Part shown: positions 2,122 through 15,268 of the stretch, one piece after another | How the letters are laid out: every line of letters begins with the position of its first letter | How positions within the stretch are numbered: the stretch's first letter is position 1 | NCBI GenBank assembly: GCA_013151735.1 | Contig: JAADHR010000131.1 | Span: 1 to 24,355 of the forward strand | Source of the DNA: Calditrichota bacterium | GTDB taxonomy: Bacteria > Zhuqueibacterota > JdFR-76 > BMS3Abin05 | Reading direction: 5' to 3' | Length of the DNA stretch: 24,355 nucleotides | Translations under genes and position numbers: made by a program | The notes under the pieces: model-generated | What the model was told of the DNA's origin: nothing | Databases searched by the model: none | The model's input: the letters and a program-made list of their open reading frames with translations, nothing else

Positions 2122-3432
2122 ATGAGAAGAAAGGTCTCGGTAGAATTTGTCGCAGTTTCACTCATGCTTTTGTTCATGGTTACCCATGCCATGGCTCAGG
2201 AAAAACTTTATCGAAAGGGGCCTTATTTTATAGGCGAAATCACCAAGACCCTTTCTGCAGGGAGAGCGGGCATTCTGGACATTCGGAATAAAAAGGGGGA
2301 CATCACCGTAAAGGGGTGGGATCAACCCAGGGTTCGCATTCAGCAGAAAGTTAAAATGGATGTGATAACGAAATCAGAAGCACAAAAGGGATTTGAATTG
2401 GTGAAAAATTCACTGCATGTGTCCGGGAAACGGATTCTTGTGGACGGGCAAGACTTCCGGTCGTGGATGCGGGTGGATTTTGTTGTGATGGTACCGAGGG
2501 CGTTTAATGTAAACCTGAGGACCAGCGGGGGGGATTTAATCCTTACGAGGCTGAAGGGGAGTGAAGAACTCACGACCAGCGGCGGTGATATTGAAATCCG
2601 TCATGCAGAGGGACAAATTCAAGCCAGAACGTCCGGAGGGGATATTTTGGTAAGAGAAGCCAAAGGGACGCTTGCGCTGGCAACCTCTGGCGGCGATTTG
2701 GAACTCAGCGCAATTACAGGGGTACTGAGTGCGTCGACCTCTGGCGGCGATATTCGTCTGAAAAACTGCGGGGACAGAATTGCGGTGGCAACTTCTGGCG
2801 GGGATATTCAAATCGTAAATACGCGGGGGTATATGAATGCACGAACCTCGGGCGGGAATATTGATGTGAGAGATGCCAATGGACCCTTGCACATCACGAC
2901 GTCGGGCGGTGACATTCAGGCGGTCCGGGTCAGCGGAAATGTGACGGCCAAGACTTCCGGGGGCGACATCGGGATTGAGGATGTTTTAAAACGCGCAACG
3001 GCCATAACCTCCGGCGGGGATATTTCCTTGATGAATATAGGGGATGCGGTAGTTGCCAAAACCTCCGGAGGTGACATAGACATAAAAAATGCAGGGAGCT
3101 CCGTGAATGCAGTCACTTCCGGCGGGAATATCAGCGTTAATATGAACCCCCGCAATTTCAAAACCGATCACCATGCCAAAATCATTTCCTCCGGGGGCGA
3201 TTTGGAGCTGAGTTTGCCTGCAAAGCTCCCGGCATCCATCCATGCCGTTATTCGGATTGAGCACAAATTGTTGCAATCCTATTCCATTACATCTGACTTT
3301 CCGCTTCAGATTCAAAAAAGGGATGAAAAGGGGTGGATTAAACTCATTGAGGCAACCGGCGATATTAACGGCGGCGGAGATAAAATTGAATTGAAAACCG
3401 TTAATGGAAATATTGTGATCAAAAAGAGATGA
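2122..3432 (+). CDS. secreted DUF4097-like putative adhesin / beta-helix protein built from ~13 tandem 18-aa TSGGDI repeats
   Basis: The signal peptide MRRKVSVEFVAVSLMLLFMVTHAMA ends in an AxA site. Twelve consecutive units follow, each TSGG[DN][IL] plus 12 residues, for example TSGGDIEIRHAEGQIQAR. DUF4097 proteins typically sit downstream of sigma/anti-sigma pairs. Confidence 0.75.
   Translation: MRRKVSVEFVAVSLMLLFMVTHAMAQEKLYRKGPYFIGEITKTLSAGRAGILDIRNKKGDITVKGWDQPRVRIQQKVKMDVITKSEAQKGFELVKNSLHVSGKRILVDGQDFRSWMRVDFVVMVPRAFNVNLRTSGGDLILTRLKGSEELTTSGGDIEIRHAEGQIQARTSGGDILVREAKGTLALATSGGDLELSAITGVLSASTSGGDIRLKNCGDRIAVATSGGDIQIVNTRGYMNARTSGGNIDVRDANGPLHITTSGGDIQAVRVSGNVTAKTSGGDIGIEDVLKRATAITSGGDISLMNIGDAVVAKTSGGDIDIKNAGSSVNAVTSGGNISVNMNPRNFKTDHHAKIISSGGDLELSLPAKLPASIHAVIRIEHKLLQSYSITSDFPLQIQKRDEKGWIKLIEATGDINGGGDKIELKTVNGNIVIKKR
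2521..3215 (+). repeat. intragenic 54-nt tandem repeat array (12-13 units) encoding the TSGGDI beta-helix rungs
   Basis: The nucleotide-level motif acctctggcggcgat / acttccggcggggat recurs every 54 nt. The protein shows a strict 18-aa periodicity. Confidence 0.8.
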
Positions 3433-3542: not shown

Positions 3543-5441
3543 TTATTTATCTACCGGGGAAGTCATTCCGCTTGTGTGAACAATCAAAACCGGGATGCTG
3601 ATTTCGTGCCGAACCTTGTCAATAGTCGCTCCGTGAACCCAATCCTCAACACCACGGTGACCATGAGCACCGACAATCAAAAGATCAAAATCATTTTCAT
3701 TAATGGCCTTGATTAATTCATTGGCCGGGTCTCCAAAAAGAAGCAGTGTCTCCACGGGTAAATCTTTCTCTTCTATTTCCCGGGCCAGGTCCTCCAGATA
3801 CGCTTCATCCTGACGGCTGTGGAGACTGGCGCTTTTATCACCGTAAACGATTGTTCCCGGAGCATCCGCAACGTGGATAAGGGTCAAACGCGAGTGATAT
3901 TTTTTGGCCATGGTGACAGCGGCAGAAACAATTTCGGCATCGCGGTCGGAATTTTCAAGCGCCACCGCAATAGTCTTGAATGAAAACGAATGAAGCCGCC
4001 GGGCAATCTTGGCGCCGGTACGCACAATCCCGCTTTCCCACTCCCGGGACACTCCAAAAAACGGGGAAAATGTGATGTAGGCCAGAACCCCCAAAATAAA
4101 AGCGGCTGCCGGAATAATCAACAGCCAGAGGAAAAATGAAGCCCCTGTAAGCCAGCGGGTGAGTTCATCCACAGCCAGTTTTATGTTCAGCACAATGATA
4201 ATGGCGGCCACCGACCAGCTCAGAAATTTCACCCAGTTTTTATTGGCAAATTCGCCCATCTTTTTCTTGTCCGATGTAAAATGAATCAAGGGAATGGTGG
4301 CGAATGGAAGCTGAAGACTTAAAATGACCTGAGACAAAATAAGCAGCCGGTAGGTTCCTTCGCTGCCGGAAATGGCAATAACCACAATAGCCGGCAAAAG
4401 GGCGATGCTGCGTGTGATCAATCGTCTGAGCCAGGGCTGAAGTCGAATGTTTAAAAACCCTTCCATTATGATTTGTCCGGTTAGGGTGCCGGTGAGAGTG
4501 GAGCTTTGTCCGGCGGCAATCAGGGCCACGGCAAAAGCGACCGGCGCAATATGAGTGCCGAGAATGGGTTTTAGCAGTTGATGAGCCTGCTGAATTTCAG
4601 TGACTACAATACCGCGGGAAAAGAAGACGGCTGCCGCCATTATCAAAATAGCCGCATTTACAAAAAAGGCCGCGTTTAATGCCACGGCTGAATCGATGAA
4701 ATTGAATTTGCAGGCTTCGGCTTTTCCGGTGTACGTATTTGAAACGGCCCGGGATTGAACCAGGGAGGAGTGCAGATAGAGGTTGTGCGGCATCACCGTG
4801 GCGCCAATAATTCCGATGGCAATGAAGAGGGCTGACGGCGGCAGGTGAGGCACAAATCCGGCCAAAATTCCTCCCCAATCCGGTTTGGCCAGAAAAATTT
4901 CAATCAGGAAGCAAGAACCAATCATCGCAATAAGGGCCACAATGAACGCTTCCATTTTTCGTACACCCAGCCGTTGAATGGCCAGAAGCAAAAACGTGTC
5001 CAACGCCGTAAGTGCAGCTCCCCAGAGCAGAGGCAATCCGAACAATAAATTCAATCCGATAATTGTTCCCAACAATTCAGCCAGGTCCGTGGCCGCTATG
5101 GCAATTTCGGCCAGAATGTACAGAAAAAAATTCAAGGGTTTGGGATATTCCCGTTTGCAGCCCTGGGCCAAATCGTACCCGGTTACAATTCCAAGTCGTG
5201 CCGAGAGGGTTTGCAAGAGGACCGCCATCATATTCGACATCAACAGAACCCAGATGAGCGTGTAGCCAAACCGGGCGCCCCCTTCAATGTCCGTTGCCCA
5301 GTTTCCGGGGTCCATGTAGCCTACGCTGACGAGATAGGCAGGACCGATAAACGCAAACAGGCGCCGAAACCATCCCCGCTTCCTGACGGGAACCAAATCT
5401 TCCGAAGAGTCTGACTTTGTCGATTGGGTTGTGAAATTCAT
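3543..5441 (-). CDS. mntH: Nramp-family divalent metal (Mn2+/Fe2+) transporter MntH fused to a C-terminal universal stress protein (UspA) domain
   Basis: The Nramp TM1 signature GYMDPGNWATDIEGG and the TM6 signature MPHNLYLHSSLV are both present, with multiple TM helices. The C-terminal ~150 aa read TIAVALENSDRD...LLIVGAHGHRGVEDWVHGATIDKVRHEISIPVLIVH, a typical UspA fold motif. AAGGA lies before the ATG. Confidence 0.85.
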   Translation of the reverse strand: MNFTTQSTKSDSSEDLVPVRKRGWFRRLFAFIGPAYLVSVGYMDPGNWATDIEGGARFGYTLIWVLLMSNMMAVLLQTLSARLGIVTGYDLAQGCKREYPKPLNFFLYILAEIAIAATDLAELLGTIIGLNLLFGLPLLWGAALTALDTFLLLAIQRLGVRKMEAFIVALIAMIGSCFLIEIFLAKPDWGGILAGFVPHLPPSALFIAIGIIGATVMPHNLYLHSSLVQSRAVSNTYTGKAEACKFNFIDSAVALNAAFFVNAAILIMAAAVFFSRGIVVTEIQQAHQLLKPILGTHIAPVAFAVALIAAGQSSTLTGTLTGQIIMEGFLNIRLQPWLRRLITRSIALLPAIVVIAISGSEGTYRLLILSQVILSLQLPFATIPLIHFTSDKKKMGEFANKNWVKFLSWSVAAIIIVLNIKLAVDELTRWLTGASFFLWLLIIPAAAFILGVLAYITFSPFFGVSREWESGIVRTGAKIARRLHSFSFKTIAVALENSDRDAEIVSAAVTMAKKYHSRLTLIHVADAPGTIVYGDKSASLHSRQDEAYLEDLAREIEEKDLPVETLLLFGDPANELIKAINENDFDLLIVGAHGHRGVEDWVHGATIDKVRHEISIPVLIVHTSGMTSPVDK

Positions 5442-5753
5442 AAGTAATCCTTTTTGTCATTTCTTCTTTGTGAAAATAAAAAATCAGGGTGTCCCTATTT
5501 ATTGGGCGGTTCAAGTTGAAGAATTATCATTAAAAATTTCAGCATTTTCAATTTGCTTAATACCTCAAAATGATTGGACTTATCCAAAAATATATTTATA
5601 TTTATCCAAAGAATTTTTCAAAATCAAGCTTTTTTATTTTTATTTGTTTTTCCTCTTGCAATAGGCGCAAGAAGGGATTATATTAAAAAAATTTATTTTG
5701 GGTCAAATCTGCCTGTATACATAAAAAAACAACCCCAATCGAGAGGAATTCCG

Positions 5754-6719
5754 ATGATTTTCTGGTATATTCTCTTAGGTCTTATCGTTTTTCTGGTGAT
5801 TTTATTTGTCATTCTTGCGAAGGCTCGTCGTCCCGATCAGTTGTTGCTCATCGAAAAACACGGCACCGTTCAGCCTTATCTGAAACGCTGGTATTTTTCG
5901 AAATCCGTGCTGGCTTTGCCGGCGACAGTAAAGACCATTTCAACGGAAGTAAAGACGCAGGCCCGCGGGAAAATTGATGTCATTATCAAACTGTCGGTAT
6001 CCTTTTTCCCCGACCCGGAACGCGCCGGAAACCTGATTCGGGTGGGAGGATGGACTCCCGATGCCGTTGACCGCGTCGCTCAAGAGCTGTCCGGGACTGT
6101 GCAGGGGCTGGTTGGGGAACTGGTGGAACCCCTTAACATCACGCAGGTGACGCGGGAGAAATTGTCTCACATGCTGCGGCAAAAGCTTCAGGCTCTGGCG
6201 CCAAGTTTTGGAATTACGGTAACCTCTGTGGTTGTTTCCGACGCGGAGGCAGCGGATCAAAAGATTGCAGACGCCATTCGAAAGCAGGAAGAAGCCCGCA
6301 TTCAGGAGGAAATGGAAAAATCGAGCCAGCGATCCCGAATTGCCACAGAAAAACTGCGTTTGGCGGCGGATGATGAAATTGAGCGCATGAAGCACAAAAT
6401 GGAAATGGAACATCTCAAATTACGGGAAATTGAGGAGCTAAAAGCGGCCGAGCTGGAACAAAAACTACTGGAAAAGGAAACCGAAAAAAAGCGTCTGACG
6501 CTGGCGTTAGAGCAGGAGGAAGCCGAACTGCTGAGCCGGCATCCGGAACTGATGATGCTTACGCCGCAGTTAACCCGATTGGTAGAGGCCAGCCAGCAGC
6601 TTAAGAGCGCGAAAACGGTTATTTCACTTTCGCCTGAAATTCAAGACGGATTACCCAGAATTTTACAGACTCTGCTGGAACTGCTTCAGTCCCGTAAGGG
6701 TCAGGAAAAGGAATCGTGA
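5754..6719 (+). CDS. SPFH/band-7 (flotillin/stomatin-like) membrane protein with C-terminal coiled coil
   Basis: GAGAGG lies 7 nt before the ATG at 5754. The longer ORF from 5574 runs through an AT-rich promoter region and is rejected. An N-terminal TM (MIFWYILLGLIVFLVILFVILA) is followed by a ~200-aa domain with SPFH-like motifs (GITVTSVVVSDAEAADQKIADAIRKQEEARIQ). The C-terminus is a charged heptad region rich in E, K and L. Confidence 0.5.
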   Translation: MIFWYILLGLIVFLVILFVILAKARRPDQLLLIEKHGTVQPYLKRWYFSKSVLALPATVKTISTEVKTQARGKIDVIIKLSVSFFPDPERAGNLIRVGGWTPDAVDRVAQELSGTVQGLVGELVEPLNITQVTREKLSHMLRQKLQALAPSFGITVTSVVVSDAEAADQKIADAIRKQEEARIQEEMEKSSQRSRIATEKLRLAADDEIERMKHKMEMEHLKLREIEELKAAELEQKLLEKETEKKRLTLALEQEEAELLSRHPELMMLTPQLTRLVEASQQLKSAKTVISLSPEIQDGLPRILQTLLELLQSRKGQEKES

Positions 6720-6789: not shown

Positions 6790-6843
6790 AATCTTAATCT
6801 TAGTCTTAATTTTAATCTTAGTCTTAATTTTAATCTTAATCTT
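6790..6843. repeat. nine tandem hexamers (consensus AATCTT) organised as 2 x 18-bp higher-order units (AATCTT-AGTCTT-AATTTT), ending 5 nt before the start codon of the giant ORF
   Basis: The sequence reads aatctt aatctt agtctt aatttt aatctt agtctt aatttt aatctt aatctt. The theme continues into the first codons (atg tcc ttc tta agg). Confidence 0.95.
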
Positions 6844-6848
6844 AAACA

Positions 6849-9800
6849 ATGTCCTTCTTAAGGCTCAAACCCTCTTTCCCATCGCTTGTCGGAGAAATTA
6901 GCAAGCGCACGGCTGATGCACCTGTCGATCCCGAACGGCGCGTGGATTTTCACATTGGGAATCCTGTGCAGGATGACTCACTCGACCGGCTCTACAACGC
7001 CGTTCTTTCCGGAGCAGAGTTTCTACAGCCTTTTGCAGAAGATTTCAACGAAAGCGATTTTCTCTCGGATCTCGATGATCCCGATCTGTCCGAATATTTT
7101 AAGCTTTTGTTTGAAACCTCCCGGAAATCGGTGGCGTATTCGCCGGCCGGCGGATTTTCGCCGGGGAACCCGGGAACCCTGACGCGCAAACTGGAGGCCT
7201 TTTTTAATCGTGTTCAAGACTCACCCACACGATACCATTTTGGGGAAAAAGGCGCTCCGGAATTTGCCCTGGCCTCCGGCGGACGCTGGCAGGCCCTAAA
7301 GCTCTTGCTGCAAGTTCTCTTTGAACAGACCGAATATACCTCAACGCAGGGTCTTGTTTTGGGCCGTTTGCCATACCCCCAAATTCTTGCGGCCTGTTCA
7401 AATCAGGTAACTCTCGTCGAGAATTCAGGCCCTTCCTTCTTTCGGAAGCTGGAAGCCGCCCGCAAAAACTCCAAATCCGACGCGCTGCTGTTTGTTTTGC
7501 TGCTTCAAAAAGTACCCCAGGAGGATCGCAAGCGCCTGGGCGACTTTCTGCAGCAGCACCCCGTTCTTTTGATCGAAGCGAACGACTCTTTGCAGGCCGA
7601 AAGTCTGGCATCTTTTTCAAAACTAAAAGGCCAAATGATTCGCATTTTGTCACCGGCTGTCATTCATCCTTACCTGAACTGGTCCAGCCTGTCTTTCATT
7701 TTGGCTCCGGCGGATGTCATTGCGGCCTTTAACCGCCAGCATTTTAAAAAGATGGGGACACCGTCGGCAAGTGAAATCAAACTGCTGAATTTCTTTTTGG
7801 CAGAAGACGGAACCCTTCTGCCAGATCGGATACCGGGGGGGAAAACGCCCGATTTTTCGCGGTCTGAAACGGCTCAGACAAAGGGCCTCGTTTCAGATGT
7901 GCCGTTTCCGGCAGGCCTGTCTACTTTTCTCAAACGTATCCCCAAAATAGCCGAAGCCATCAGTCAAAATATTCAGCACGAAGCGGCTCGTTTGACCGCC
8001 CGTTCCGAACAGATGGCGGCCCGCCTTTCCGAAAGCATCCCGGGGCGCGGAGAGAAGCAGGGATACCCGCCGGCTCAGGATCCGTTTCTTGGAAGGCGCC
8101 AGGAAGACATGGTTCGGGATTTTTTTCGGAATTTGGGGAATCCGTCGTATCAGGAGGACCTGCAAAAATCGTTTCTGTCCGTTTTTCAATACCTTCATCC
8201 GGAGTATCAGCCGGATCATCTGATTCCGGTGAGCGGTTCCGCACGTACGGCGCTGAGCGCCATGGCCGAATTTTGGGACATTCGGGAAGTGATTGTTCCC
8301 GATTTTAGCTGGACTGTAAATGATGCCTTCCCCCGGGTAACGGCCGTTCCTCTCGGGGAAAACCTTCAATTGGATGCCCGCCGTTTCACTTCAGTCCTGC
8401 AAGAGAAAATGGCGGCTGATTCCAACTGGCGTAACACCGGGGCGGTCATTTTGAACAACCCGCACAACGCGACGGGAAAAATCTGGAATGAACGGGACGT
8501 TGAAGCTGTTTTACTTTTTTGTCTGCAAAACGGAATCCGGGTGATCGACGATCTCTCCTATTCAAATGTGGTGATCGCCTCTGCGGACGCGCGGGCGGAG
8601 CGTGTTCCCGTGAAAACCCTCAAAATGCTGGCCATCGGGGCCGTTTCACAGGGTAAACTTCGCCAGAGTCAGGTACGATTTCTGGTGACACTTCAATCCA
8701 TTTCCAAAACCGATTGTAAAGCCGGTGCCCGGCTGGCCGTCTGTGACGTGCCGGACCCGGTGCTTCGGAAAAAACTTTCTGCAGCACTTGCTCCCATTCC
8801 TCCCAACCTAATGGCTGTTTTCATGAGCACGCTGTTTTACCGGCAGGGGGAGGACAAGGTTGCCCGGTTTGCCCGGCTGAGGGATTGGATTATGTCGGAG
8901 CGGACAAAAGCGCTTCAGCGGGAATTTGAATCGTTGTCGTCGGAGGCGAATCCATATCACATGATTTATGTCTCTCCCGAAGGAGCCATGTACCCGCGTC
9001 TGTTTGTAACCGACATGCCCGGCACGGTTCAGATTGAAAAAATCGCTTTTCAACTGGCCGGGCAGGGGATTGGTCTGATTCCAATGACCAATTTTTCACA
9101 AACGGTGGAAGGATTTGATCTGGCCCGGCGGACGTTTCGACTGACCCTTGGCGGGCGGTTGGAAATGGATACCATTCCTCAAAAGGTTCGGCGGTTGGTC
9201 ACGGAATTGTCGGAACAAATCCGACGCCAGGCCGAAAATTACCACTATTATTCTCTGACGGAATCCGATCTTTTTCGGCAGGTGAAAGCCGATGCGGTTA
9301 CCCAACAGCGGCTGAGGGCGGTTCGGGAAAAATCAGATGCCGTGTTTGAAGAAATTCGAAATCTGGCAGCGAGCGAATTTTTGAACGCATGTCCGGAATG
9401 GGCCCGAAAAAACATGGCCGATTCAACGGCTTTGCAGGATTTCTTGACCCAGTTTTTGCCCAGTCGCTGGAGATTTTTCCAGAACCGGCTTTCTGACTGG
9501 CTTCTGATTCGGGAGGCGGTCCGCCTGAACGCGGAGAGTCCCGTTTTCAGGACCACCGTTCAGGAAAATTTTCTGAAGGAATTACAGATGGAGTCGTCCG
9601 GAACCCGCCGAAGACGCTTTTCGAGGCGCCTGTTCGATCGAACGGTTCATCCCACACAGATGTACTCCCTTCAGGTGGAACAGTGGCTCACACGGCTGGC
9701 AAAGGCGAGTGTGGCTCCGGAGGTGTACACGCCGGTATCCGCAAAAATGCTGTTTCGGGCTCTCGTCCAGGAATACGTTGGCGAAAACGTTCCGATTTCT

Positions 9801-12497
9801 TCCCAGATGGAAGCACAGGAAGCCATTTGCGACCTGGAGGCGCTTCATCTGGCCGAAATCTTCAATGAAATCTTTTTCGGGCACTCGCCGGGCGTCGTTC
9901 TTTCTCTGTGGGGCGATTGGGACGGCAGCACCCGCCCGAGTGGTCAGGGGCACACGTTGGTCAGCGGACCGCTCATTGCCAATATTCGGGCACTAACCCT
10001 GTTGGTTCACGGTCTTCAGAAAGAAAACCGGCTGACCGAGGAGGACCTAAAGCAGTTGGAGAAGATTGGGTCGATTGAAAAGCGAATCGAAAATTTTCAA
10101 AATATTCTGCAAAAGATTACCGGTTTGACCAGCCGCCTGGAAGAAAAATACCGGAAAACCATTCCCCTGGAATATTCACCGGGCAAAATACGGCAGTTTT
10201 TACGAAAGCTCGGCCTCTTGCGCGATCCCCTGAAGTCTATTTGGAAACACAACGACCGGAACGAACGCCGGATGCAGCAGTACCGAAAGCAGCGGTCATC
10301 TGAAATCAAACAATTATTCGAAATCAATCGTATCCTGACCGGGATGGTCGAGGCGGCCGTTTCCCGGAACCGGGAAACACTGCAAACTGCGGACACGTTG
10401 TTTTATTTGCAATCCTACAAAAACTATCTCAAGCGATTTTATTTGACGCCTCGCATCCACCAAAAAATTATTCTGGATAAAGATCAGTTTACAATTGACA
10501 CAACGGTTTACAATTTGGTGGAACTCAATGTTCTGGCTAACCAGTACGGGTACGATGGATTTGTCCTGGTGATTCAGGTCAGCATGGCCAGCAGTGCCAG
10601 GGCCATTTTAACCCTTTACCAGAAATTGTGTGAGGAGAAGGCGCGGGTTTTGCGAAAAATACCGGGTCTGCATTTGCCGGATATCCGGGTTGTTCCCCTG
10701 TTTGAAGAGCTGGAGGCTATTCGGCACATTCCGGAATTCCTGGATGAAATCTGGGCGTTTTCCGAGACCACGCGCAAATTGGGTCAGCCTACGGCCGATC
10801 GTTTTCGGGAAATTATTGGGGAGTTTTTTATTGCGGGTTCTGATTTGAGCCAGCAGGTGGGACAATTGAAGGCGTATTCGCTCTATCAGGATGCGCGGGA
10901 AATGCTGGATCGCTGGATGTGGGAAAAGAACCTGTTGGGGAGAATTCGTATTAAATTCGGCTCGGGAGAATCGCCGCAACGACAGGGAGGCTATTACGAT
11001 GCCACGGGAGGCCGGCCGGTTTTTGTTGAAGAATTTTACGAAAAAAACCCAATCGTTGAGTCAATGGAACCCCTGAAAAGGGTTTCTCTCCGCCACGCCC
11101 GGTCCCCTCTGTCCGGAATTCTCAGCCACAGCGATTTTCGAACCTTCCAGTCAAATGTGATGGAACAGCTCCGCGGACTTCGGGCCCAGGAATTGGCGAA
11201 TGTTTTTAATCACATTCGAATCAAGCAGCAAGACTTCTGGACTCGCGTGCTTTCAAGGGCTTCCCGGCTTCCGGTTGAAGGAGACAAAACCTGGACGATT
11301 CTCCGCCACCTCATTCGCAGGGAGGATGATGCCGTATTTCTGGAATTTCTGGATGATGTACAGACCAATTTTAAGCAGATTGTCTACGGCCGCCCTGAAG
11401 ACATGACGGGTATTCACGTGGTTTCCTATTTCTTGTCCCGGACCCTTTTGCCGCTTCGCGACCGCCCCACGGTCCGGCCAAGCAAGGAACCGGCAGTGGA
11501 TCGAAGCCGGGAAATTGTGGAACGCCTTTCCAGTACACTGCCCCTGGCTACTCACGGAACGCTTTTGCGGGCAATCGGCCACAACAAGGCGCAGACGATT
11601 TTGCTGGGAGTCAATCAATTTACGACAGGGCTTTTCCGCGCGACTTACCAATTTTTGGAACGGGGAAACAGGAACCGACTGGAGTTGTTTCAACAACATA
11701 TTTTGCCTCATCTGCCCGTCCGGGATATTTTGAATACCCTTCGGCTGTATCACGATCCTGAATTAACCTGCGTCCGGCAGGTTGAAGATGTGTTCCCGCC
11801 GGGGAATTCGGCCCTGAAAGCCCTGAAAGAGGATCAGTCCGTTTTGAAAGATTTTGTCCCCCTGTTTCAGGAAGAATTACTGCGGAAAAACGGTGTGTTG
11901 GCAAAAGGGCAACTGCCATCCAGAAAAGAATGGGATGATCTGATTCCATTTCTTCGCCCGGATTTGGCGGTTCTTTTACAGGAAGATATTTTTAACACAC
12001 AGCCTGAAGTGCTGCCCGGATGGGCGCACGTCCCTGAAAGCCTTCGTCCGAAATGGGAAGAGGAGTTTATCAGGCGCCGGATTATTGCTGACACTCGTGA
12101 AAAAATGTGGCACATGCTCCGGGAGCCGATTTCCGAACAGGTGCGGAGTTTTATTGAACTGGCCCGGGCGGTGAAATCGCTGTTTTCGCGCGAGTCCCGA
12201 TTTGAGCCTCCAACAGGCAGTGTTTCGCGTGGGCGTGTGACGCGCCTGGCCTCCCAAATTAATGATATGCTCCGAAATGTAGTGGACGACAGCATGCGTC
12301 AGTTTTTACTGACCGCCGTGCAGTATTTTATTTATTTGCCCGAAACCATGAAAGATATTCCGGAAGAGGTGCTCCTTGCCCTGCGGGACATGGAGAAAAT
12401 TCTCAAATTGGATGAAGAGGCACTCACGCGGGAACAACAAAAAATCCTGCTTTCCTATTTTTTGAAAATGGCACGAATCAGTGGAAATAGCGGATAG
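6849..12497 (+). CDS. 1882-aa multidomain protein: degenerate class I/II aminotransferase-like fold + intact class I/II PLP aminotransferase fold + divergent phosphoenolpyruvate carboxylase (PEPC)-like C-terminal domain
   Basis: This is a single uninterrupted 5.6-kb ORF. Residues ~25-300 carry aminotransferase-like landmarks (VDFHIGNP, YSPAGG, ALASGGRWQAL) but no PLP lysine. Residues ~425-700 carry NLGNPS, IPVSGSARTAL, NNPHNATG, IDDLSYSN and SISKTDCKAGARLA, the class I NPxNPTG motif and the SxSKxxxxxGxRxG PLP-lysine motif. Residues ~790-1882 carry the PEPC motifs in canonical order: TVHPTQ (TAHPTE), SLWGDWDGSTRP (SWMGGDRDGNP), FVLVIQVSMASSARAIL (YVISMAKTPSDVL), VVPLFEELEAI (VVPLFETLDDL), IAGSDLSQQVG (IGYSDSAKDAG), KFGSGESPQRQGG (FHGRGGSIGRGG), LLRAIGHNKAQTILLG (LRAIPWIFAWTQNRLML) and a C-terminal ...ARISGNSG (...AGMRNTG). 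Confidence 0.8.
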   Translation: MSFLRLKPSFPSLVGEISKRTADAPVDPERRVDFHIGNPVQDDSLDRLYNAVLSGAEFLQPFAEDFNESDFLSDLDDPDLSEYFKLLFETSRKSVAYSPAGGFSPGNPGTLTRKLEAFFNRVQDSPTRYHFGEKGAPEFALASGGRWQALKLLLQVLFEQTEYTSTQGLVLGRLPYPQILAACSNQVTLVENSGPSFFRKLEAARKNSKSDALLFVLLLQKVPQEDRKRLGDFLQQHPVLLIEANDSLQAESLASFSKLKGQMIRILSPAVIHPYLNWSSLSFILAPADVIAAFNRQHFKKMGTPSASEIKLLNFFLAEDGTLLPDRIPGGKTPDFSRSETAQTKGLVSDVPFPAGLSTFLKRIPKIAEAISQNIQHEAARLTARSEQMAARLSESIPGRGEKQGYPPAQDPFLGRRQEDMVRDFFRNLGNPSYQEDLQKSFLSVFQYLHPEYQPDHLIPVSGSARTALSAMAEFWDIREVIVPDFSWTVNDAFPRVTAVPLGENLQLDARRFTSVLQEKMAADSNWRNTGAVILNNPHNATGKIWNERDVEAVLLFCLQNGIRVIDDLSYSNVVIASADARAERVPVKTLKMLAIGAVSQGKLRQSQVRFLVTLQSISKTDCKAGARLAVCDVPDPVLRKKLSAALAPIPPNLMAVFMSTLFYRQGEDKVARFARLRDWIMSERTKALQREFESLSSEANPYHMIYVSPEGAMYPRLFVTDMPGTVQIEKIAFQLAGQGIGLIPMTNFSQTVEGFDLARRTFRLTLGGRLEMDTIPQKVRRLVTELSEQIRRQAENYHYYSLTESDLFRQVKADAVTQQRLRAVREKSDAVFEEIRNLAASEFLNACPEWARKNMADSTALQDFLTQFLPSRWRFFQNRLSDWLLIREAVRLNAESPVFRTTVQENFLKELQMESSGTRRRRFSRRLFDRTVHPTQMYSLQVEQWLTRLAKASVAPEVYTPVSAKMLFRALVQEYVGENVPISSQMEAQEAICDLEALHLAEIFNEIFFGHSPGVVLSLWGDWDGSTRPSGQGHTLVSGPLIANIRALTLLVHGLQKENRLTEEDLKQLEKIGSIEKRIENFQNILQKITGLTSRLEEKYRKTIPLEYSPGKIRQFLRKLGLLRDPLKSIWKHNDRNERRMQQYRKQRSSEIKQLFEINRILTGMVEAAVSRNRETLQTADTLFYLQSYKNYLKRFYLTPRIHQKIILDKDQFTIDTTVYNLVELNVLANQYGYDGFVLVIQVSMASSARAILTLYQKLCEEKARVLRKIPGLHLPDIRVVPLFEELEAIRHIPEFLDEIWAFSETTRKLGQPTADRFREIIGEFFIAGSDLSQQVGQLKAYSLYQDAREMLDRWMWEKNLLGRIRIKFGSGESPQRQGGYYDATGGRPVFVEEFYEKNPIVESMEPLKRVSLRHARSPLSGILSHSDFRTFQSNVMEQLRGLRAQELANVFNHIRIKQQDFWTRVLSRASRLPVEGDKTWTILRHLIRREDDAVFLEFLDDVQTNFKQIVYGRPEDMTGIHVVSYFLSRTLLPLRDRPTVRPSKEPAVDRSREIVERLSSTLPLATHGTLLRAIGHNKAQTILLGVNQFTTGLFRATYQFLERGNRNRLELFQQHILPHLPVRDILNTLRLYHDPELTCVRQVEDVFPPGNSALKALKEDQSVLKDFVPLFQEELLRKNGVLAKGQLPSRKEWDDLIPFLRPDLAVLLQEDIFNTQPEVLPGWAHVPESLRPKWEEEFIRRRIIADTREKMWHMLREPISEQVRSFIELARAVKSLFSRESRFEPPTGSVSRGRVTRLASQINDMLRNVVDDSMRQFLLTAVQYFIYLPETMKDIPEEVLLALRDMEKILKLDEEALTREQQKILLSYFLKMARISGNSG

Positions 12498-13030: not shown

Positions 13031-13122
13031 CCCCATTCGGGTAAAAATCTGCTTCACACATCTTACATCATTCATCCCCTGATTTGTCAGGGAATACTAC
13101 TCACCCTATCGAGGAGTTAAAA

Positions 13123-14436
13123 ATGAAACCAGAGATTTACGTCATCAGTTTGGGCGCGGATAAACCCAAAGGTGTACCGGGATGGCCAAATGCCGAATTG
13201 GATCCAAAGGAACGGGCAGCAGAACTTTTCAAAAAGGTGAAATCCTTTTTCCCCAATTACACCTTTAGCGGCGGTGAGCTTTTGGACAGTACAAACGATG
13301 CGTTCAATGCATTTAAGGCCCGCGTCGAAAAGGCCCAACCGGATGGTGTGCTCATCTTCGGGCTGGCCATTCCACACCATACCGTGAAGCGTTTTGGTGA
13401 ATTAAACATACCCATGCTCTGGGTGAATGATCCTTATGGCGGCGATCTTTATTATTTGGACGCGATGGAGGTGGGACTTCAGGAGAAATGGCCGTTTGTG
13501 GGGTTGAGTTCGTCCCGTTTTTCCGATATTGGGAAAAAACTGCGTTATTTCGACGTCATTCGTGGATTGCGCGACTCCAGAATTCTGGCCGTCCGGGATC
13601 GTGCGTATCCGGCAGACTATGTGGAAAAAATCAGGCGAAACCTGGGGGTCGAGATTCTTGTTTTGAATCACGAGGCCTTTAATGCCGTGTACGAGAATGT
13701 GTCTGAGGAAGAAGCCAAACAGTGGGCAGAGCGCTGGATTTCGGAAGCAGAAAAGGTGATGGAACCGCAATTTGAGGATGTTCTGGCGGGAGCCAAAACC
13801 TACCTGGCCCTGAAGGAACTCATGGCCCGGGAAAAGGCCAACACCGTCACGGTGGATTGCCTTGATTTGGTTTACAGAAAAAAGATTTCCGCCTATCCCT
13901 GTCTGGCGTTTTTTCAGTTGAACAATGAGGGCTCCACCGGTATTTGCGAGGCAGACATCGATTCGGCCCTCACGCAATTGATTATCCGCTTTTTGGCTGA
14001 ACGTCCGGGGTATGTTTCCGATCCTGTGATTGATCAGGGAACCGGACAGATTGTTTACGCCCATTGTGTAGCGGCCTCCAGGATGAAAGGGCCGAAGCGG
14101 GAAGCCATGCCGTACATTTTGCGGTCGCATGCCGAGGACAATTCGGGCGCCTCGGTTCAGGTAAAAATGACGCCGGGTGAAATTATGTCGACCATAAAAT
14201 TTGATATCAAAACCAATCGGATTGCGTTTCACAAGGGTAAAATCGCAGGCAACATTGACACCGATCGGGCCTGCCGAACAAAGGTAGCCGTGGAAGTGGA
14301 CACGGACGCCCTGGCCCGAAATTACCAGGTGTCAAAATTTGGCTGGCACCGCGTTTCCTTTTACGGCGACTGGGAGACGGAAATCCGCGAGTTGGCTCAG
14401 CTCATGCAGTGGGAATTTTGGGACGAATTAAAATAG
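13123..14436 (+). CDS. hypothetical 438-aa cytoplasmic protein of unknown function (weak, unverified resemblance to sugar-isomerase-like folds)
   Basis: GAGGAG lies 6 nt upstream of the ATG at 13123. The TTG at 13084 is a less likely start. The composition is protein-like, and the internal antisense ORF 13402-14232 looks like a shadow. No motif I can assign with confidence. CEADIDSAL and VYAHCVA are only loosely reminiscent of FucI/AraA-type metal-site motifs. Confidence 0.55.
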   Translation: MKPEIYVISLGADKPKGVPGWPNAELDPKERAAELFKKVKSFFPNYTFSGGELLDSTNDAFNAFKARVEKAQPDGVLIFGLAIPHHTVKRFGELNIPMLWVNDPYGGDLYYLDAMEVGLQEKWPFVGLSSSRFSDIGKKLRYFDVIRGLRDSRILAVRDRAYPADYVEKIRRNLGVEILVLNHEAFNAVYENVSEEEAKQWAERWISEAEKVMEPQFEDVLAGAKTYLALKELMAREKANTVTVDCLDLVYRKKISAYPCLAFFQLNNEGSTGICEADIDSALTQLIIRFLAERPGYVSDPVIDQGTGQIVYAHCVAASRMKGPKREAMPYILRSHAEDNSGASVQVKMTPGEIMSTIKFDIKTNRIAFHKGKIAGNIDTDRACRTKVAVEVDTDALARNYQVSKFGWHRVSFYGDWETEIRELAQLMQWEFWDELK

Positions 14437-14608: not shown

Positions 14609-15268
14609 TTACTTGATTTTTGCTTGTGCTTGTTTCGTTTCTAACTCCACACGAAAACAACGTTCGCCCTCCAATATAAAGGGGGAAAATCCCATTCGGT
14701 GCAAATACCGCTCGTGGACTTTGCCGCCGGGTCGGGTGTAAATAATGAAAAAACCGCGTGAAGTAAAAAACTCGGCTTTGCGGTGGTACACATATTTCCC
14801 AATCTTAAAGTCCCGATATCCGGGAATAACGAAATCGAGTGTAACAAAAAGACTGTGTGTGTCCTGAACGTCGGCAATAAACAGGCCGGCGGGTACCATG
14901 TTGCGCAATACGAAAAAAATAATCAGGTTTTTATCCGGATTGAATTTGAAATCGGGTTGAAATTTTTCAATCTCCGTGGCGTAAAACTCGAGAAAATAGT
15001 TTAAATATTTGGAATCCTTTTTTACCTCCAAAAGCGTGAAGTATTCCTTTGTCCCGAAGATCTGGATTAAAAAGTAGAGGTCAATCAAAACAATTAAAAA
15101 ATTCAGAATCACAATTGGGTACGCATGAATCAGAAATCCGTAAAGCGTAAATGCAGCGGCTCCAATCAAATTTATGATACGCAATTTTAGAATCGAGCTC
15201 ATCATGAGCGAAATGGCAACCAGAATGGAAGCAAAATAGCCAATCAATTCAAATGTACCGATGTGCAT
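14609..15268 (-). CDS. hypothetical membrane protein (3 N-terminal TM helices + ~130-aa soluble C-terminal domain)
   Basis: Hydrophobic stretches are ELIGYFASILVAISLMM, LIGAAAFTLYGFLIHAY and IVILNFLIVLIDLYFLIQIF. The gene is divergent from the histidine kinase gene. No recognisable catalytic motif. Confidence 0.5.
   Translation of the reverse strand: MHIGTFELIGYFASILVAISLMMSSILKLRIINLIGAAAFTLYGFLIHAYPIVILNFLIVLIDLYFLIQIFGTKEYFTLLEVKKDSKYLNYFLEFYATEIEKFQPDFKFNPDKNLIIFFVLRNMVPAGLFIADVQDTHSLFVTLDFVIPGYRDFKIGKYVYHRKAEFFTSRGFFIIYTRPGGKVHERYLHRMGFSPFILEGERCFRVELETKQAQAKIK

Follow-up and report, generated by a model that had tools for sequence, protein, structure and literature searches.

The window analysed here, a 24,355-nt stretch of DNA from a Calditrichota bacterium (contig JAADHR010000131.1), carries a giant gene whose product joins an aminotransferase to a domain related to phosphoenolpyruvate carboxylase (PEPC). 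An earlier note on this DNA had singled out positions 10689-10991 as a PEPC-like region that keeps its metal-binding residues and has a degenerate glycine-rich catalytic loop. This stretch encodes strands 5-7 and loop I, the catalytic core of a TIM barrel that is very divergent but genuinely of the PEPC superfamily and makes up the C-terminal ∼1,100 residues of the aminotransferase-containing, 1,882-residue chain. The barrel constitutes a third, deep PEPC lineage beside the two that are already known.

PEPC (EC 4.1.1.31) is a homotetramer that converts phosphoenolpyruvate (PEP) and bicarbonate (HCO3-) to oxaloacetate and inorganic phosphate with the aid of Mg2+ or Mn2+. Its sequences fall into two kinds, bacterial/plant and archaeal-type, of which the latter is accepted as a distinct type of PEPC and has a small, stand-alone subunit of 55-60 kDa (PMC8100219).

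Architecture of the protein

The giant gene and its domains, including a pyridoxal 5'-phosphate (PLP)-dependent aminotransferase, are placed as follows:

6849 to 12497, plus strand: giant gene, an open reading frame (ORF) of 5,649 nt encoding 1,882 aa, taken from the ORF list and its translation
6849 to 7838, plus strand: N-terminal alpha/beta domain, aa 1-330, putatively aminotransferase-like from the secondary structure of an AlphaFold2 model
8079 to 9218, plus strand: class I/II PLP aminotransferase domain, aa ∼411-790, with the cofactor-set motifs intact
9189 to 12494, plus strand: PEPC-like TIM-barrel domain, aa 781-1882

The stretch at 10689-10991 lies on the plus strand in frame with the ORF at 6849-12497 and encodes aa 1281-1381 (VVPLFEELE...IAGSD...KFGSGESPQRQGG), exactly as the earlier note had quoted it. 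The GenBank record of the protein, NOY78023.1, comes from a Calditrichota metagenome-assembled genome (MAG) and carries 'aminotransferase class I/II-fold PLP-dependent enzyme' as its sole annotation. The database protein P0001 is identical to the 1,882-aa product, and the full-length homologs are 1,830-1,950 aa long. A Pfam scan of the whole protein returned one domain, the aminotransferase PF00155 (aa 457-711, 43 bits), and the C-terminal 1,100 residues had no Pfam match, PF00311 included. The NCBIfam scan gave a faint match to TIGR02751, the archaeal-type PEPC model, at aa 1271-1353 (E 0.09; 11.6 bits against a cut-off of 146).

Fold and homology of the PEPC-like domain

The AlphaFold2 model of aa 781-1882, built from an input alignment of 61 sequences, reached a predicted local distance difference test (pLDDT) score of 85.5 and a predicted template modelling (pTM) score of 0.89, and consists of eight beta-strands within a large helical shell. 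When this model was compared with the PDB using Foldseek, the top 15 matches were all PEPCs, with E-values from 4e-11 to 1e-6. The best was E. coli PEPC (1JQN, E 4e-11), and the list also held plant PEPCs and the archaeal-type enzyme 3ODM (E 6e-8), while the first protein of another kind was a pyruvate kinase at E > 0.03. The domain is thus an eight-stranded barrel in an all-helical shell that lies nearer to the solved PEPCs than to other PEP/pyruvate barrels. The PEPC fold, on which the whole interpretation in the earlier note depended, is present.

Homology at the sequence level was assessed by profile-profile alignment with hhalign. The bacterial PEPC profile was made from E. coli ppc and ten diverse plasmid- or chromid-borne ppc genes, and the archaeal-type profile from the verified 3ODM sequence and 18 relatives (19 sequences). 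Aligning the family with a single E. coli sequence had given a spurious N-terminal alignment, and this was replaced by the real PEPC profiles. The family aligned with bacterial PEPC at E 7e-4, over E. coli residues 463-590, and with archaeal-type PEPC at E 2e-4, over 284 columns from strand 3 to loop II. As a calibration, the archaeal-type and bacterial profiles aligned with each other at E 7.6e-6 over 376 columns. An alignment of the window domain with six stand-alone relatives (described below) matched archaeal-type PEPC at E 5.6e-7 and a probability of 92%, over 302 columns in which loop I was contiguous. Because some stand-alone relatives themselves pass the Pfam PEPC thresholds, they bridge the fused domain to PEPC, and its homology with PEPC is near-certain. 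The hhalign distance from the fused domain to each known type is about that between the two types themselves, and we therefore place it as a third, deep lineage. Among the readings offered in the earlier note, these comparisons favour that of a very deep-branching PEPC lineage.

Active-site motifs and the glycine loop

Conservation was counted across an alignment of 61 sequences with identities as low as 36%, and equivalent residues were taken from the hhalign profile-profile maps. Invariant columns number 110 of 1,102 overall. The catalytic motifs, listed here with their counterparts in E. coli PEPC and in the archaeal-type enzyme of Clostridium perfringens, each lie at or just past the C-terminal end of one of the eight predicted strands:

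9639 to 9659, plus strand: RTVHPTQ after strand 1; H934 pairs with E. coli H138 (the catalytic base; TAHPTE) at hhalign confidence 8; archaeal TQHPD
9909 to 9953, plus strand: WGDWDGSTRPSGQGH after strand 2; resembles bacterial WMGGDRDGNP (hhalign confidence 8-9)
10446 to 10463, plus strand: TPRIHQ on strand 3 (model strand 417-424); R1202, invariant, pairs with archaeal R82 (VTPRIPN) in hhalign
10689 to 10709, plus strand: VVPLFEE on strand 5; E1286, invariant, pairs with the E. coli metal ligand E506 and archaeal E165 (confidence 9)
10830 to 10844, plus strand: IAGSD after strand 6; D1332, invariant, pairs with the E. coli metal ligand D543 and archaeal D202 (IARSD)
10953 to 10991, plus strand: loop I, KFGSGESPQRQGG; R1378 pairs with E. 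coli R587 and archaeal R246, and F1370 and S1372 stand at H579 and R581
11136 to 11156, plus strand: FRTFQSN on strand 8; T1432 and Q1434, invariant, pair with E. coli T611 and Q613 (TEQGE) and archaeal T268 and Q270 (TFTFQS)
11454 to 11483, plus strand: LRDRPTVRPS at the start of loop II; R1539 and R1543, invariant, pair with E. coli R699 and R703 (GSRPAKR; confidence 8-9)
11565 to 11582, plus strand: LRAIGH; R1574, invariant, pairs with E. coli R713 (LRAIPW) and archaeal R390 (PRAIS)
12483 to 12497, plus strand: C-terminal GNSG and stop; G1882; bacterial RNTG, archaeal GSIG

Loop I is the element that had been called degenerate. From the first loop glycine to the arginine is a step of 7 residues in the window protein, in E. 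coli (G580-R587) and in the C. perfringens archaeal-type enzyme (G239-R246), and side by side the three read G-S-G-E-S-P-Q-R, G-R-G-G-S-I-G-R and G-C-G-S-L-P-F-R, respectively. The E. coli residue R587 is well established as the counterpart of maize R647. In the archaeal-type structure 3ODM, where loop I is ILGCGSLPFRGH, the positions of H579, R581 and R587 are held by L238, C240 and R246. H579 and R581 are invariant in the bacterial PEPC alignment, and L238 and C240 are equally invariant across the 19 archaeal-type sequences. The fused family has Leu, Phe or Met at the first of these positions, Ser or Cys at the second and always Arg at the third, R1378 being present in 61 of 61 sequences. 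The arginine of loop I has been described as the residue of that loop which lies in the active site and binds PEP (PMC3894211).

The suspicion of a degenerate loop was therefore right for H579 and R581, which are gone (F1370 and S1372), but not for R587, which is kept as an invariant arginine. Aligning the domain with bacterial and archaeal-type PEPC, the check that had been suggested for arginines at shifted positions, put R1378 in the place of R587 itself, at identical spacing. Judged by its sequence, loop I is an archaeal-type loop (G-x-G-x4-R) and not a degenerate one, because archaeal-type PEPC, too, has neither the His of H579 nor the Arg of R581 and keeps only the equivalent of R587. 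The inference from a degenerate loop to altered chemistry or a pseudo-enzyme fails, given that an accepted PEPC has the same pattern. More generally, a PEPC should not be annotated as dead on the ground that it lacks the GRGG His/Arg pair of the bacterial enzymes.

The two metal-ligand positions that had been proposed held up. The glutamate of VVPLFEELE (E1286) and the aspartate of IAGSD (D1332) are aligned with E506 and D543 in the profile-profile maps at column confidence 8-9, each is invariant in 61 of 61 sequences, and from this equivalence both would be expected to act as Mg2+/Mn2+ ligands.

The candidate base, H934, is His in 60 of 61 rows, the remaining row being a gap; its correspondence to H11 of the C. 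perfringens archaeal-type enzyme is a motif match only. A greedy hhalign pairing of H11 with H1134 (HND) was rejected as an end effect of local alignment, as the pairing of H138 with H934 has the higher confidence and fits strand 1. The strand-2 motif has seven invariant residues (D1023, W1024, D1025, G1026, R1029, P1030 and Q1033), and its likeness to archaeal-type IDFEGKLTPYHQ, in the pattern D-aromatic-acid-G, is a match by eye without high-confidence hhalign support. On strand 3, the barrel position of R1202 and the VR[IV]xxR motif suggest that this residue is equivalent to E. coli R396 (DIRQES). An earlier by-eye match of DIRQES to HNDRNER (aa 1133-1139), a segment that AlphaFold2 puts in a helix, was rejected because strand 3 of the model is aa 1197-1204 and hhalign pairs TPRIHQ with VTPRIPN.

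The FRTFQSN motif aligns with the archaeal type at hhalign confidence 7-8, and the archaeal-type counterpart of the R1539/R1543 motif is R344, with RDR shared (NRDRL). PEPC has two mobile loops, whose roles have been described (PMC3894211). The model has a pLDDT of 56 in loop I and below 50 for the residues following R1543 (model residues 768-774), which is consistent with both loops being mobile here as well. A role has also been described for the C-terminal peptide of PEPC and its glycine (PMC3894211). A terminal glycine is a hallmark of PEPC, and glycine is the last residue in 61 of 61 family sequences, an equivalence drawn from position and motif, as hhalign did not reach the C-terminus.

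Comparison with known PEPC types

In motifs and fold, the fused domain is closest to archaeal-type PEPC (PF14010 PEPcase_2, TIGR02751; C. perfringens PepcA, 3ODM). The two have in common T-x-HP, TPRI, PL[FV]E, IA[GR]SD, TFQS, RDR, RAI, the terminal Gly and a loop I of the form G-x-G-x2-P-x-R without the His or first Arg. They differ in size, as the fused domain has ∼1,100 aa and the archaeal-type enzyme ∼537 aa, and the ∼570 extra residues form helical insertions and a C-terminal extension. Unlike the archaeal-type enzyme, the barrel of the window protein is fused to ∼800 aa of aminotransferase-like domains, and E1374, Q1377, Q1379, H1204 and H1578 are invariants of the fused family and not of the archaeal type. 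The fused domain also scores below the PF14010 and TIGR02751 cut-offs, and both at the level of these models and in subunit size it falls outside the archaeal type.

The bacterial/plant enzymes (PF00311; 1JQN, 1FIY, 5VYJ and 3ZGE) are similar to the fused domain in the size of the barrel with its helices. Their residues H138, E506, D543, R587, R699, R703, R713 and the C-terminal Gly have conserved equivalents in the window protein, whereas R396 is matched to R1202 only indirectly, via archaeal R82. H579, R581 and K546 are missing from the fused domain, which has F/L, S/C and Q in their places, and the aspartate-site residue R832 has no aligned counterpart in the window protein. PF00311 does not match the fused domain, in which both the FHGRGGxxGRGG motif of loop I and the Lys of SDSxKD are altered. 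The aminotransferase fusion further sets the window protein apart from this type.

The fused family and its stand-alone relatives

Searching with the C-terminal 1,102 aa as query returned 651 relatives. Among the matches listed, nearly all were 1,830-1,950 aa long with an unchanged architecture, at 36-85% identity, and the PLP aminotransferase module is present throughout the fused family. Calditrichota (with a homolog assigned to Caldithrix abyssi, HGY56936.1), KSB1, Ignavibacteria/Melioribacteraceae, Bacteroidota, Aminicenantes and Marinimicrobia are among the source names of its members. When 1.84 billion representative proteins were scanned exhaustively with HMMER, 228 matched, comprising ∼36 full-length representatives and fragments. 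The fused family is real and conserved, but not large. One seemingly 'C-terminal only' member (P0013) was rejected as a stand-alone form, being truncated by a contig end. Literature searches found nothing describing the fused family and no precedent for the fusion of a PEPC-type barrel with an aminotransferase.

The closest sequence relatives outside the fused family are stand-alone proteins of ∼865-1,040 aa with the same motif set, which were rare in the same 1.84-billion-protein scan (E 1e-17 to 7e-26). Three of the seven that were scanned passed the Pfam gathering score for PEPcase_2, and one of those three also passed that for PEPcase. The group comprises P0352, P0367, P0373, P0374, P0376 and P0383 (loci L024 6001-8844 and L025 2138-5185), and one relative, MEK7167108.1 from a Patescibacteria MAG, is annotated as a 'hypothetical protein'. 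Their loop I, K-L-G-T-G-E-A-P-F-R-Q-G-G (KLGTGEAPFRQGG), is intermediate between the fused family and archaeal-type PEPC. Unlike the fused family, they are without aminotransferase domains, they keep the Lys of SDLSK where the fused protein has Q1335 at the K546 position, and some end in ...PGM rather than in Gly. The two gene contexts seen for these relatives contained no gene for an SPFH protein, which is found upstream in the fused family (see below). An asparaginase gene lies upstream of, and adjoining, one stand-alone relative.

The aminotransferase half

The AlphaFold2 model of aa 1-800 (pLDDT 89.8, pTM 0.88) has two alpha/beta units joined by a linker that is disordered at 335-357 and then forms a long helix at 357-396. 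The second unit is the PF00155 domain, which passes the Pfam gathering score and carries the Schiff-base Lys, the PLP Asp and Asn and the carboxylate-binding Arg. Its cofactor set is located as follows:

8454 to 8477, plus strand: NNPHNATG
8547 to 8561, plus strand: DDLSY
8697 to 8711, plus strand: SISKT with Lys620
9135 to 9155, plus strand: FRLTLGG with Arg764

The PLP-binding Lys620, the Asp, the Asn and Arg764 are invariant in the family. The domain shares PF00155 and the PLP residues with class I/II (fold-type I) aminotransferases such as Bna3 (3B46) and 1V2D (kynurenine/glutamine), LysN (2EGY) and an aspartate aminotransferase (2GB3). It differs from them in being very divergent, in being preceded by an aminotransferase-like domain without the Lys, and in having the PEPC-like domain behind it. 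Its matches to many class I subfamilies were weak and non-specific, and the best NCBIfam match, at E 2.5e-6, fell well short of every subfamily cut-off.

In the first unit (aa 1-330), seven strands alternate with helices in the manner of the large domain of an aminotransferase, with the strands at 139-285, and the secondary structure of this unit is the only basis on which we assign it as a probable aminotransferase-like domain. A Pfam scan of aa 1-330 gave no match, and the sequence of this segment, in which the family invariants are HIGNP, RGG, SGG and KGTPS, showed no S-x-S-K PLP-lysine motif. The unit is probably non-catalytic. The model packs it on the true aminotransferase (pTM 0.88 for aa 1-800), an arrangement suggestive of an intramolecular pseudo-dimer, and it may possibly take the place of the partner subunit in the usual aminotransferase dimer.

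Gene neighbourhood

The gene directly upstream of the giant gene encodes an SPFH protein with an N-terminal transmembrane helix and a long coiled coil:

5754 to 6719, plus strand: SPFH/Band-7 gene (ORF 5574-6719), 321 aa from the probable start Met at 5754, identified from Pfam Band_7 and the sequence

All 8 loci examined have a gene for this protein (33-73% identity) immediately before the giant gene and in the same orientation, and the two genes form a conserved cassette. Neighbours other than the SPFH gene are not conserved. In a Bacteroidota MAG (GCA_018817885.1, L018 13722-17895), genes for an aminotransferase, an ATP-dependent phosphoenolpyruvate carboxykinase (PEPCK) and a further aminotransferase lie directly downstream of the family member on the same strand.

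Proposed function and alternatives

The best explanation of these observations, and one that we consider probable, is that the third PEPC lineage makes oxaloacetate, which the fused transaminase would convert to aspartate. By analogy with PEPC, E1286 and D1332 would hold Mg2+ or Mn2+, R1202, R1378, R1539 and R1574 would bind the PEP phosphate and the carboxyphosphate intermediate, and H934 would serve as the base, with mobile loops I and II and the C-terminal Gly closing the active site. PEP and bicarbonate would then yield oxaloacetate and inorganic phosphate. The fused PLP aminotransferase, with its complete cofactor-binding set, could take oxaloacetate on to aspartate, which would make the chain a single PEP-to-aspartate module, and the co-conserved SPFH protein might organise this module at the membrane. 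The two halves of the proposal differ in strength: active PEPC chemistry in the barrel is likely, while the aspartate coupling between barrel and aminotransferase is put forward tentatively and is open to some doubt. The PEPCK and asparaginase neighbours hint at the PEP/oxaloacetate/aspartate node.

Several results count against this explanation. The context hints from PEPCK and asparaginase each come from a single genome. The nearest solved relatives of the aminotransferase span kynurenine aminotransferases, glutamine aminotransferases, LysN, aspartate aminotransferases and C-S lyases, and the substrate is not readable from the sequence. The Foldseek template modelling (TM) scores are low (0.3-0.5), which we attribute to the ∼570 domain residues left unmatched in the 537-aa archaeal-type enzyme. 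The family profile gave no HMMER match to E. coli PEPC, even with filters off, and against all PDB sequences at E ≤ 10 it found 3ODM only (E 0.33, at the PLFE motif). The Pfam and NCBIfam PEPC models are all below threshold on the fused family, PF14010 matching one of 10 members (E 0.073). Lastly, the family-specific invariants E1374, Q1377 and Q1379 in loop I, Q1335 at the bacterial K546 position, H1204 and H1578 could, as residues of active-site loops, signal a different substrate or step.

These last residues, invariant, polar and in or near the catalytic loops, also support the idea that the protein is a PEPC homolog with a different reaction, in which PEP or an enolpyruvate intermediate would meet another electrophile or partner (perhaps a keto acid or an imine from the PLP domain) and no bicarbonate would be fixed. 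The ∼570 residues beyond the length of archaeal-type PEPC point the same way, as does the obligatory fusion with a divergent aminotransferase and a pseudo-aminotransferase domain, for which no PEPC precedent was found. However, the residues common to both known PEPC types are all kept, including the C-terminal Gly and both mobile loops, and the stand-alone relatives have the same motifs without any aminotransferase. The absence of K546 and of H579/R581 is not diagnostic, since these are absent from accepted archaeal-type PEPC too. We regard such a change of reaction as unlikely, albeit the most serious of the alternatives. A more specific version, which we rate marginally lower, is a new PEP-dependent enzyme coupled mechanistically to the PLP domain on an SPFH membrane scaffold, with the invariant Glu, Gln and His residues of loops I and II as its specificity determinants. 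Such an enzyme might, for example, apply enolpyruvate or carboxyphosphate chemistry to an intermediate, an amino or keto acid, that is transferred within the 210-kDa chain.

The barrel could instead be a catalytically dead regulatory or scaffolding module that senses PEP, aspartate or another effector and controls the aminotransferase. PEPC barrels do carry allosteric sites, the bacterial-invariant H579 and R581 are missing, and an aminotransferase-like domain elsewhere in the chain is apparently dead already. Nevertheless, the missing residues are equally missing in accepted archaeal-type PEPC, and the metal ligands, all phosphate-binding arginines, the base His and the terminal Gly are kept at 36-47% identity, when pseudo-enzymes usually lose these. 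The near-complete conservation of the catalytic set makes a pseudo-enzyme unlikely, and we consider the regulatory module as a whole highly improbable. That the PEPC likeness arose by chance, from short motifs in a helical or TIM-barrel domain of unrelated origin, as the non-significant HMMER-level searches and the failure of the by-eye HNDRNER match might suggest, is effectively refuted by the hhalign match at E 5.6e-7, by the bridging proteins above the Pfam PEPC thresholds and by some ten colinear motifs at the strand ends.

If the explanation in terms of oxaloacetate and aspartate synthesis is true, a third deep PEPC branch, made up of the fused family and its stand-alone relatives, has been missed by current Pfam and NCBIfam models. 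As a result, genomes of Calditrichota, KSB1, Ignavibacteria, some Bacteroidota, Aminicenantes and Marinimicrobia may be wrongly scored as being without the anaplerotic CO2-fixing step. The fusion would suggest direct conversion of PEP to aspartate in which unstable oxaloacetate is never released, and the strict pairing with SPFH hints at a membrane-organised central metabolism.

Other features of the window

The 129-nt gap between the SPFH and giant genes contains a tandem array of the hexamer AATCTT (9.3 copies at 6790-6845, with an 18-nt super-unit, AATTTTAATCTTAGTCTT, repeated 3.1 times), which ends 3 nt short of the giant-gene ATG. This array could influence the start of translation, or it could be a tract prone to slippage. 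Three ORFs had no Pfam match, namely 2122-3432 on the plus strand (436 aa), 13084-14436 on the plus strand (450 aa) and 14609-15268 on the minus strand (219 aa), and the latter two are conserved beside the giant gene only in the closest relative (L005). The gene at 3543-5441 on the minus strand encodes an Nramp metal transporter with a C-terminal universal-stress-protein domain and is conserved upstream in that same relative, at 81% identity.

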